Both the position numbers and the translations under genes were made by a program. The notes beneath the pieces are model-generated. The model was given only the letters and a program-made list of their open reading frames with translations, was not told the origin of the DNA and did no database searches. A stretch of DNA of 14,926 nucleotides from contig CAYUTF010000082.1 of the NCBI GenBank assembly GCA_964447495.1, positions 1 through 14,926 of the forward strand, given 5' to 3'. This document shows positions 8,786-11,975 of this stretch, in pieces (the stretch's first letter is position 1; the number at the start of each line of letters is the position of its first letter). Origin of the DNA: an uncultured archaeon (GTDB lineage: Archaea > Asgardarchaeota > Lokiarchaeia > Sigyniarchaeales > SOKP01).

Positions 8786-9340
8786 TTATTTTAATGGAAC
8801 ATATTTACTACTTCTTGTTGCTCCAATACCAGGAGAACCATGTTGTACACGTTTGCGTGTTAAAGAAAATTCACCTAAATAATGCCCAATCATCTCAGGC
8901 ATAATTTCTACTATCTCAAAACTTCTTCCGTTGTAAACTCCAATTTTTAATCCCACCATCTCCGGAAAGATAATCATATCTCTCACATGAGTTCGTGTGA
9001 GAAGATCTTTACCTCTTTTTTTTGCTCTGTAAGCCCGTCTTAACCTCTCGAGTAATTTCTTCTGTCTAGGTGGTAAACCTCTTCTTAAAGAACGTCGTGC
9101 TCTTGCTGGAAGTAATTGAATAAACTCATCCATATTCATCTTCTTTAAATCTTCTAATGTGAAACCCCGAAAATGGAATTTTAAGCGATCCCTTTCTTTA
9201 TCAAGATCGATTTCGTCTTCGATTTCCTCTTCTTCCTCTTCTTCAATTTCTTCCTCGATCTCTTTTTCTATCTCTTCGGTAGGTTCTTCAGATTCAGGTT
9301 TTTCTTGTTCATCCTCATTAGGTTCTTCATTCGGAGACAT
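8786..9340 (-). CDS. rps19: 30S ribosomal protein uS19 with ~45-aa acidic N-terminal extension
   Basis: [69 protein letters not shown]. Confidence 0.97.
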
Positions 9341-9574: not shown

Positions 9575-10249
9575 TTATTTGTAATTATTGGGATTATAAA
9601 TCCTTTCAATATCTTCTTCATCAAAATTGCCACTCCATTTTTCTTTAAGGATGATGAAATCTTTTGGATTCATATTTGGGTTAATTATGGAGTGATATTT
9701 CATTTTTGAATTCGTAAATTCAGTGCCATTTTTTACAAAATAATAAACTCGATTATTACTTATTATTATTGGATTTCCTCTTATGATTTCCCACACTTCG
9801 GATCTGAATTTATGAATTTGAAGTGAAAGTCCCATCTCAGGTTTTATGAAAATAAGGTTATATTCGGGGTAAGTAAATTTTATACTATACCATTTAGCTA
9901 AGATATCAATATAACCTTGTGGAACGTTAAAATTCTTAACGAATTCCTCAGGCTTGAAATTAATTTTTTCAGAATGCTCGTATTTATATGGATTATATAT
10001 TATCTTATGTTTTGATACATCCTGATCGTATTTGATATTTATTTGTGCTGCCCCAATATTAATTATCATATAATACTCCTTAGGGCTGACTTTTAAATTC
10101 AACTTCTTTACACGCGTGGTAATAACTGAAGTATTATTAATAATCAGAATTTTATTTGAGCTAATACAATCAATTGAAATCATCAATTCTTGAGAGTAAT
10201 TCTTTCTAAGATAAGTGCCCCTTCCAGATACTAATATTTCTTTAGACAC
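9575..10249 (-). CDS. Cupin-domain protein (C-terminal domain resembles type II mannose-6-phosphate isomerase cupin)
   Basis: Cupin motif 1 GLSLQIHKFRSEVWEIIRG and motif 2 ...KYHSIINP; GTG start 11 nt after the ribokinase stop. Confidence 0.7.
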   Translation of the reverse strand: MSKEILVSGRGTYLRKNYSQELMISIDCISSNKILIINNTSVITTRVKKLNLKVSPKEYYMIINIGAAQINIKYDQDVSKHKIIYNPYKYEHSEKINFKPEEFVKNFNVPQGYIDILAKWYSIKFTYPEYNLIFIKPEMGLSLQIHKFRSEVWEIIRGNPIIISNNRVYYFVKNGTEFTNSKMKYHSIINPNMNPKDFIILKEKWSGNFDEEDIERIYNPNNYK

Positions 10250-10260
10250 GATATTATAAC

Positions 10261-11232
10261 CTATTTGATTTTAATTTCGTTAATTTTAGTAAACCTATCT
10301 TGAATTTCCATAGCAACCGGCATGGATTCTTGGGCACCTTTTCTTGTAACAGCAATAGAAGCGGCAGCAGTGGCATATTTTACGGCATTCACTAAAGTCT
10401 CACCTTGAGCTAGTTTACTTGCTAAAACACCATTAAAGCAATCTCCAGCACCAACAGTATCAATTGCTTTTACTTTATAAGCTGGAATCTTGGTTATCGT
10501 TTCTGGATTTGATTGATATATCATTGAGCCTTTACTTCCCATAGTAGTTATTACTGAATTTATTCCTAATTTTGAAATATCCCTTGAAGCCTGAATAATT
10601 TGTTGATCTTCAGAGGATATTAGCTTTTCTAAATTCAATAATGAATGAAGGTGGAAAAGCTCTCCTTCATTAGGAATAATGATATCTATTAGATGAAATA
10701 AATCATGAGGGATAGGTTTTAAAGGAGCAGGGTTTAATATTTTTGTAACTTTTCCCTTAGATGCAATTTGAAAGATTTTTTGAATTGTTTCAATTGGAAT
10801 CTCCATCTGAACGATAATAGTGGTCGCATTTTTAACGATACTTTCATTTTTTTCTATTTCTTGCGGGCTTAATTTAACGTTGGCACCTGGAGCAACGCTT
10901 ATCATATTCTCACCATTTTCATCAATCATAATAAACGCAATTCCGCTCGCTTCTGTATCATCTCTGATGATATGTTCAACATTTATACCTTCTTTTTGTA
11001 ATTGAGTGAGCATCTGATCCCCAAATGAATCTTTACCAATTTTTGCTATAAAAATTGTACTCATGCCCGATCTTATGGATGCAACTGCTTGATTCGCACC
11101 TTTTCCTCCCATAAATTGTTTGAATGTTCCTCCAGTAACTGTTTCACCCTTTTTAGGTAAACACTGCGAATAGATATTCATATCTATATTGCTAGAGCCT
11201 ATGATAAGTACGTAGGGTTCTCTACTTGACAT
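10261..11232 (-). CDS. rbsK: Ribokinase (PfkB family)
   Basis: GSSNIDM, P..GETV, GGKGANQAVA, GENMISVAPGAN, LNPAP, PNEGE, DTVGAGDCFNG. Confidence 0.93.
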   Translation of the reverse strand: MSSREPYVLIIGSSNIDMNIYSQCLPKKGETVTGGTFKQFMGGKGANQAVASIRSGMSTIFIAKIGKDSFGDQMLTQLQKEGINVEHIIRDDTEASGIAFIMIDENGENMISVAPGANVKLSPQEIEKNESIVKNATTIIVQMEIPIETIQKIFQIASKGKVTKILNPAPLKPIPHDLFHLIDIIIPNEGELFHLHSLLNLEKLISSEDQQIIQASRDISKLGINSVITTMGSKGSMIYQSNPETITKIPAYKVKAIDTVGAGDCFNGVLASKLAQGETLVNAVKYATAAASIAVTRKGAQESMPVAMEIQDRFTKINEIKIK

Positions 11233-11493: not shown

Positions 11494-11879
11494 TTGGCAA
11501 AAGATAAAATTATCGGACTCATCGTCATGATTCTCGGCATCTTTATCGCTATTGTTTACACCATGGGCAGTGTTTTGGATCTTTTCTTCGAAACACTTGG
11601 TGGAAACGCCAATTGGGATCAACTTCTCATGATTTTCGGTCATGATTGGCTTGATTGGAGACTTTTTGTGGTTCTACCCTTATGGTTAATTGTAATTTTA
11701 ATTTCCATTATCGCCATTTGGATTGGATACAGCATGCTTACAACGTTCAAGCATTTCGCTGAACCTAAGCTATACGCCTGCTCCAGTCCCACTCGAAGTT
11801 AAAAGATGTGTTTCACATTTTTATCGATTAGTTGGAAGAGGAGCTTGCTGCTGAAGAGGAATCTGAAGAATCAAGTTAA
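11494..11879 (+). CDS. Small two-TM membrane protein with acidic tail; predicted spliced CDS join(11494..11741,11773..11798,11830..11879), 107 aa
   Basis: TTG start with SD-like GAGGT at about 11482-11486. Two hydrophobic helices. Removing two 31-nt BHB inserts gives ...WIGYSMLTTPAPVPLEELEEELAAEEESEESS*, followed directly by a T-tract. The unspliced ORF stops at 11802 with an implausible tail. Confidence 0.85.
11742..11772 (+). other. Putative BHB intron 1 (31 nt) in protein-coding gene
   Basis: Central helix GCUU(11736-39)/AAGC(11767-70); bulges AC^A(11740-42) and UA^U(11771-73); internal hairpin GUUC-A-AGC...GCU-GAAC; ligation gives CTT AC|T ACG CCT (L-T-T-P). Confidence 0.78.
11799..11829 (+). 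other. Putative BHB intron 2 (31 nt) in protein-coding gene
   Basis: Central helix UCGA(11793-96)/UCGA(11824-27); bulges AG^U(11797-99) and UU^A(11828-30); internal stem UAAAA-G-AUGUG/CACAUUUUUA; outer stem UCCCAC/GUUGGA with one mismatch; ligation gives CTC GAA G|AG TTG GAA (L-E-E-L-E). Confidence 0.83.
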
Positions 11880-11888
11880 ATAAAATAC

Positions 11889-11905
11889 TTTTTTTTTTTC
11901 TTTTT
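11889..11905 (+). terminator. Oligo-T archaeal terminator
   Basis: T11-C-T5 run starting 10 nt after the spliced-frame stop at 11879. Confidence 0.6.
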
Positions 11906-11975
11906 AAACTCACTTTTTAATTTTTAATTAGATGTAAACCATTTCATAGAATTTGATATCGTATCTAATCAGATA

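Follow-up and report, generated by a model that had tools for sequence, protein, structure and literature searches.

The window, a stretch of 14,926 nucleotides, is AT-rich (GC 0.315), and its minus strand carries an archaeal ribosomal-protein operon with S19, L22, S3 and L29 through S5 and L30. Directly upstream of S19 are genes for a pfkB-family kinase and a cupin, and the gene analyzed here (the host gene) is divergent from the kinase gene. Two side observations were made on the start of the operon (window 8786–9340 and 9575–11232, both on the minus strand): the S19 open reading frame is 184 aa long, with the S19 domain confined to residues 83–167, and the kinase and cupin genes occupy the place at which one might expect L3-L4-L23-L2. 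Neither an Rfam scan nor a tRNA scan of the window gave a match. The sequencing runs that contain the window are salt-marsh and sediment metagenomes, and five RNA runs contain 7–26% of its words.

As plain unspliced DNA, the host gene appears in the list of open reading frames as a frame of 102 aa (11494..11802, plus strand). When both 31-nt inserts (11742–11772 and 11799–11829) are taken out, a 324-nt open reading frame of 107 aa with one terminal stop is obtained, and the splice states of the gene lead to three different C-termini. Exon 1 ends two bases past the GCUU strand of the intron 1 helix, and the orthologues have an ATG at the position that matches the TTG start of the host gene. The T-rich run that follows the stop codon is the probable transcript end (Table 1).

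Table 1. Features of the host gene (window coordinates) and inserts found at the intron 2 site in genomes of the order. G000 is the genome of the window; CM, covariance model.
Feature	Position	Strand	Description
Host gene	11494–11879	+	single-copy; small membrane protein
Exon 1	11494..11741	+	248 nt; TTG start; two-TM body; from the open reading frame list
Intron 1 (predicted)	11742..11772	+	31 nt, BHB; CM match 11736–11773, 45 bits
Central helix of intron 1	11736–11739 with 11767–11770	+	GCUU with AAGC; bulges ACA and UAU
Exon 2	11773..11798	+	26 nt; GC 0.615; Pro-rich linker
Outer helix h, 5′ strand (exonic)	11787..11792	+	pairs with 11831–11836, 5/6
Central helix H, 5′ strand	11793..11796	+	UCGA; Leu-Glu codons; invariant in 6/6 carriers
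5′ bulge	11797..11799	+	AGU; predicted cut between 11798 and 11799
Intron 2 (predicted)	11799..11829	+	31 nt; without counterpart in 39/41 genus genomes; CM match 11793–11830, 43.6 bits
Inner hairpin h′	11800..11823	+	6 bp, bulged A, 4 bp, UUU loop; 9–10 pairs (MFE)
Central helix H, 3′ strand (intronic)	11824..11827	+	UCGA; 4/4 Watson-Crick pairs
3′ bulge	11828..11830	+	UUA; predicted cut between 11829 and 11830; unpaired in MFE, exactly three bases
Exon 3	11830..11879	+	50 nt; stop TAA 11877–11879; acidic C-terminal tail
Outer helix h, 3′ strand (exonic)	11831..11836	+	partner of 11787–11792
T-rich run	11880..11906	+	3′ of the stop; read from sequence; comparable T-run after the stops of orthologues
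Site-2 carriers G000 and G013 (genus g1)			31 nt
Site-2 carrier G083 (genus g19)			30 nt; in frame; contains TAG
Site-2 carrier G097 (genus g20)			31 nt
Site-2 carrier G137 (genus g20)	L135 492–521		30 nt; in frame, stop-free; inner helix decayed
Site-2 carrier G146 (genus g20)	L074 875–904		30 nt; in frame, stop-free; unrelated GC-rich hairpin

The host gene occurs once in G000. It is present in 41 of 42 genomes of the same genus and, in an order-wide search, in 141 of the 154 genomes of the order. Its product is a two-TM protein. In searches against Pfam, 14 of 16 orthologues matched PIG-P at E ≤ 0.05 (best 1.8e-4; 21 bits vs. a cut-off of 39.3) and 5 of 16 gave sub-threshold matches to DPM2; the curated cut-off for the PIG-P/DPM2 family was not reached by the host protein. 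Its atlas neighbour is named DPM2 (score 0.88), and a PDB profile search returned nothing below E = 1 and no relative. We take a PIG-P/DPM2-like identity as a lead only.

Around intron 2, the predicted transcript shows the hBHBh′ arrangement, as the BHB motif is defined in PMC5829648: a 4-bp central helix, two 3-nt bulges on opposite strands, each 3′ of a helix strand, and flanking helices formed between the exons (h) and within the intron (h′). The first-pass annotation had described a UCGA/UCGA core, AGU and UUA bulges, an AU-rich inner stem of ∼10 bp with a UUU loop, an outer stem with 5 of 6 bp, and an insert more AT-rich than its flanks. All of these were recovered, with 4/4 pairs in the core, 9–10 pairs plus one bulged A in the inner stem, and a GC content of 0.226 in the insert vs. 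0.615 and 0.42 in the flanking exons. In the RNAfold MFE structure, central helix, inner hairpin and 3-nt 3′ bulge all reappear; two weak A-U pairs stay open there, and the 5′ bulge grows to 5 nt as a result. The TAA at 11800–11802 had been taken as a premature stop. It does end the open reading frame 11494..11802, but it does so only in the doubly unspliced transcript; once intron 1 is out, translation would cross a retained intron 2 in a different frame and stop at a TGA.

The BHB shape alone is weak evidence, because a relaxed BHB filter fires often (149,904 matches in G000, 3.8e-4 per position-and-length) and the folding energy of the G000 copy is ordinary (z = −1.1 and −1.4; 26 and 19 of 200 shuffles as good). 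It is comparison that gives the insert significance: orthologues do not have it, and the canonical BHB cut sites lie at its ends.

The canonical BHB cut falls after the second base of each 3-nt bulge. At the intron 2 site, 39 of the 41 same-genus genomes with the gene are uninterrupted (40 of the 41 were read as DNA, and G041 was judged by a full-length, stop-free match). Order-wide, 14 loci that were over-long, cut short or contained stops were read, the others being judged from the table as full-length and stop-free, and three of the order-wide matches are cut by contig ends. Inserts of 30–31 nt were found at this site in six genomes of three genera (Table 1). Symmetric cuts in the predicted bulges restore the orthologous residues in 6/6 site-2 carriers and in 7/7 site-1 carriers. 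The proposed junction, which joins 11798 to 11830, had been said to recreate an E-E-L register, and this it does: the same 17 residues are restored in all six site-2 carriers. The first-pass annotation had also made its reading depend on the presence of this register in orthologues. It is present in 67 of 74 loci and in 39 of 41 genus genomes; across Promethearchaeota the C-terminal tail is nearly invariant, and those 67 loci are uninterrupted.

Opposite the invariant 5′ strand, the 3′ strand of the central helix is UCGA in five carriers and ACGA in G083, and all four central pairs form in 5 of the 6 site-2 carriers (3/4 in G083). The outer helix is weaker in G013, G083 and G097 (3/5 pairs), and the MFE structures of G013 and G083 favour a shifted outer register. 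Among the 13 independent inserts in the host gene, 12 have a fully paired 4-bp central helix at the canonical spacing, the full relaxed filter was passed by 8, and excision at the BHB cut sites restores the conserved sequence in all 13. The carriers other than G000 fold markedly better than shuffles, with z-scores of −2.6 for G013, −4.5 for G083, −3.0 for G146, −3.8 for G097 and −2.2 for G137. The G137 and G146 variants could simply be translated, because they are in frame and stop-free, and they may be introns turned into translated insertions.

Intron 1 sits 26 nt upstream of intron 2 and is carried by 7 of the 41 genus genomes, the other 34 being without it. In all seven carriers the central helix has 4/4 pairs and excision restores the conserved sequence. 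One carrier, with an intron of 32 nt, has GUUG/CAAC vs. GCUU paired with AAGC or AAGU elsewhere, a compensatory switch whose exon side is a synonymous change of a Leu codon. The introns at the two sites have equal length and a common apical motif (G-Y, a 5-nt loop ending in UC, and R-C; columns 16–24 of alignment A7, which correspond to window 11751–11759 and 11808–11816). Such sharing suggests that one intron may have been copied from the other, or that the loop may be recognised by something.

Intron 2 of G000 and that of G013 differ at 10 of 31 positions, and three inner-helix pairs are changed on both sides; these two sequences alone give no significant covariation, since 66 of 500 shuffles score as high. 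When four carriers were aligned, 84.6% of the cells were paired vs. 29.5–44.9% with the partners slid, and 8 of 10 inner-helix pairs were changed on both sides. Nine introns from both sites share a gapless 38-column core with one architecture (4-bp helix, 3-nt bulge, 6 bp, bulged A, 3 bp and 5-nt loop), in which 93.2% of the cells are paired vs. 23.9–43.6% when slid, and 10 of 13 pairs are changed on both sides. The covariation score was reached by 0 of 500 shuffles in the four-carrier set and by 0 of 500 in the nine-intron set, counts that overstate independence, because the carriers are related.

Pairwise comparison of the six carriers over 18 codons of the spliced frame gave 104 synonymous vs. 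11 non-synonymous differences, the latter all confined to the variable final codon. Exon 2 shows synonymous differences only among the carriers. Judged by these codon differences, selection acts on the downstream exon in its spliced reading frame. Where exon codons contribute to the central and outer helices, all six carriers have the same codons, the adjacent codons vary synonymously, and the helix-forming codon set is found in only 5 of 82 intronless haplotypes. Such invariance would fit either a need to preserve RNA structure in the exons or descent from one ancestral allele.

G000 encodes, on contigs C196 and C3, two EndA-family (PF01974) genes of 201 and 205 aa that score above the Pfam cut-off (104 and 69 bits). 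Against NCBIfam models of fused EndAs, the catalytic half is the best match of one gene and the structural half that of the other, with weak beta-subunit matches; the two predicted proteins fit alpha and beta subunits. Inspected by eye, the first appears to keep the Tyr-His-Lys triad, and the second appears to be without the His. RtcB is encoded as well (contig C15; 561 bits), and the host is thus predicted to possess both the splicing endonuclease EndA and an RNA ligase. Asgard archaea are described in PMC5829648 as having a broad-specificity (alpha-beta)2 EndA with an L1 insert.

We put the probability at about 0.85 that 11799–11829 is a BHB intron, removed by splicing, within the coding sequence of a PIG-P/DPM2-like gene of an Asgard archaeon (Promethearchaeota). 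The first-pass annotation had proposed a BHB intron here, a reading that is supported by the orthologue register, by helix covariation, and by the genes for putative EndA alpha and beta subunits and RtcB. In the transcript, exon bases 11787–11798 and 11830–11836 would fold together with the intron into hBHBh′. A heteromeric (alpha-beta) EndA would cut between 11798 and 11799 and between 11829 and 11830, after the second base of each bulge, and RtcB would ligate the exons and probably circularise the 31-nt intron. The sister intron 11742–11772 would also be removed, yielding the 107-aa protein with its conserved acidic tail. The sequence data show the insertion, its BHB geometry, the covariation of its helices, selection on the downstream exon and the presence of the enzyme genes; that cleavage and ligation occur, and at which positions, is inferred, as is circularisation.

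Were the inserts never removed, the gene would be a decaying pseudogene or its tail dispensable, and the protein would end frame-shifted. Public gene calls take this view: of the 15 database proteins retrieved, 13 carry a frame-shifted read-through tail, including one from a named NCBI record, and the joined exons of G000 were not found in any database protein. This reading is very unlikely, however, for a single-copy gene kept in 141 of 154 genomes of the order, whose downstream exons keep the orthologous residues (104 synonymous vs. 11 non-synonymous differences), whose BHB helices covary, and whose inserts end at BHB cut sites in 13/13 cases, with a perfect central helix in 12/13. A different proposal leaves the insert in the mRNA and lets the ribosome skip it, either through paired frameshifts or through bypassing of the kind known from phage T4 gene 60. 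A stable hairpin within a short coding gap, and an insert length that is not a multiple of three, would suit such skipping, and earlier cbf5 cases had been mistaken for frameshifting, as PMC2738675 relates. We consider skipping highly improbable, since the insert ends have no matching take-off and landing codons and landing on the nearest GAA would drop two conserved residues. It would also leave unexplained the 4-bp helix with symmetric 3-nt bulges, the switch from GCUU/AAGC to GUUG/CAAC at intron 1, and the unrelated GC-rich hairpin of G146 that yields an identical product. That the insert arose in assembly or binning deserves next to no credence: the source is a metagenome-assembled genome of 223 contigs with 3.75% contamination, yet homologous inserts with compensatory substitutions occur in the independently assembled G013, G083 and G097, the exact unspliced protein is recorded from 2 contigs, and five runs of samples distinct from the possible source each contain 52–97% of the sampled words of the window.

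The remaining alternative accepts a real BHB intron that is spliced partly or conditionally, so that its retention would switch between tailed and tail-less proteins. In XBP1/HAC1 splicing, IRE1 cuts and RtcB ligates, and the switch would be an archaeal parallel to it. The three C-termini that follow from the splice states, and the apical loop motif common to introns at both sites, would suit such regulation, as would a short, frame-shifting intron and a ligase, RtcB, also used for XBP1; in the G000 copy, cutting could in addition be inefficient, given a weak outer helix and modest stability. Close relatives are nonetheless intronless (G014 beside G013, G031 and G036 beside G000), any switch is therefore dispensable, and we judge conditional splicing to be distinctly unlikely. 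Since close relatives lack it, we regard the intron as most likely a selfish or neutral element that the host tolerates, rather than a regulator. That introns are sometimes exonised in frame (G137, G146) and that retention could switch the C-terminus, as an archaeal forerunner of XBP1/HAC1-type splicing, is in our estimate unlikely.

Within the genus, intron 1 is present in 7 and intron 2 in 2 of 41 genomes. The carriers are scattered on trees of the neighbouring pfkB kinase and of exon 1 DNA, and at least 4–6 changes are needed; the change count is no better than with shuffled labels (165 and 173 of 500 shuffles were as low). A single clade of intron-bearing alleles was ruled out, because both trees need at least 4–6 changes. 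G013, with both introns, is sister to the intronless G014 on very short branches, and G000 is sister to the intronless G031 and G036. The introns of G083 (genus g19) and G013 have a 10-base run in common, and the site-2 intron therefore seems old. The patchy pattern could reflect (i) repeated precise loss, (ii) recombinational allele exchange, or (iii) re-insertion. Intron-bearing and intronless alleles in tight clades also differ by clustered synonymous changes beside the intron, including Ser codons of the AGY vs. the TCN type, a hint that a 3′-end haplotype was exchanged by recombination rather than the intron deleted in place.

A genome-wide BHB scan of G000 for joined open frames yielded 998 candidates in the true geometry vs. 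879–1045 in six shifted controls and thus has no power to reveal other mRNA introns. An apical-motif scan returned the two introns of the host gene and one site on contig C41, which was rejected as a chance match lying antisense within an open frame. At E ≤ 10, covariance model R1 found just the two training introns in G000. In the 151 genomes of the order searched with R1, only two weak matches in non-coding context appeared outside the host gene, a count to be read with the low sensitivity of the model, which follows from its missing the known carriers G010, G083, G137 and G146. The cbf5 gene of G000 (TruB_N; C15:28557-28898) is one open frame of 349 aa with no break. ARAGORN predicted several intron-bearing tRNA genes on the G000 contigs, some with implausibly long introns (670 and 807 nt), and made two overlapping tRNA calls on different contigs; these calls are likely a mixture of real Asgard tRNA introns and artefacts.

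The cbf5 pre-mRNA of crenarchaea contains an intron, reportedly described by Watanabe in 2002 and by Yoshinari in 2006. Its length is 16–44 bp in Yokobori 2009 (PMC2738675), and cbf5 is named in PMC7714728 as the sole reported mRNA BHB intron besides a 5′UTR case in Haloferax volcanii. The host gene resembles cbf5 of Crenarchaeota in a short BHB intron inside the coding sequence, a host with hetero-oligomeric EndA, some copies in frame, reported lineage-specific losses, and mis-annotation by gene callers. Unlike cbf5, it is another gene in Asgard archaea, its two introns lie 26 nt apart in a 324-nt open reading frame and near the 3′ end instead of at a catalytic residue, and its introns are distributed far more patchily, with sister species that are nearly identical differing in their presence. 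Splicing of cbf5 has been shown experimentally, whereas that of the host gene is deduced from sequence.

The 5′UTR BHB intron of HVO_1309 in H. volcanii, which was confirmed in vitro, is likewise an mRNA substrate of the splicing endonuclease, besides tRNA and rRNA (PMC7714728). The host there is a euryarchaeon, its enzyme is homodimeric and the intron is in the untranslated leader, whereas here codons are interrupted and the frame is changed. The BHB introns of Asgard tRNA genes (bioRxiv 10.64898/2026.10.13.758758) share with the present ones the lineage, the presumed enzymes and many apparently independent gains, but they reside in tRNA genes and not in a protein-coding gene; the words 'mRNA' and 'cbf5' are absent from the main text of that preprint. 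Our literature searches turned up no Asgard case of a BHB intron in an mRNA. With XBP1/HAC1, the predicted introns have in common that a short, frame-shifting, non-spliceosomal intron lies near the 3′ part of the open reading frame, that its removal swaps the C-terminus, and that the ligase belongs to the RtcB family. XBP1/HAC1 splicing uses the IRE1 nuclease and twin 7-nt loops and is regulated by ER stress, whereas EndA and a BHB are predicted here.

Very probably, then, the window contains an intron within a protein-coding message, which is rare in archaea. If true, the host gene would be the second coding host of BHB introns after cbf5 and the first found for Asgard archaea. Two introns in a 324-nt open reading frame make intron gain and loss directly testable, as do presence/absence differences between near-identical sister species and in-frame derivatives that may be exonised. 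Many more carriers exist in public data, as the frame-shifted read-through tails of 13 of the 15 fetched proteins indicate (P0002, P0003, P0009 and others). Because public calls, including a named NCBI 'hypothetical protein', are frame-shifted, the introns are unrecognised in current annotation. Public calls for this core gene thus end in wrong tails, and comparable hidden introns may corrupt other Asgard protein predictions.
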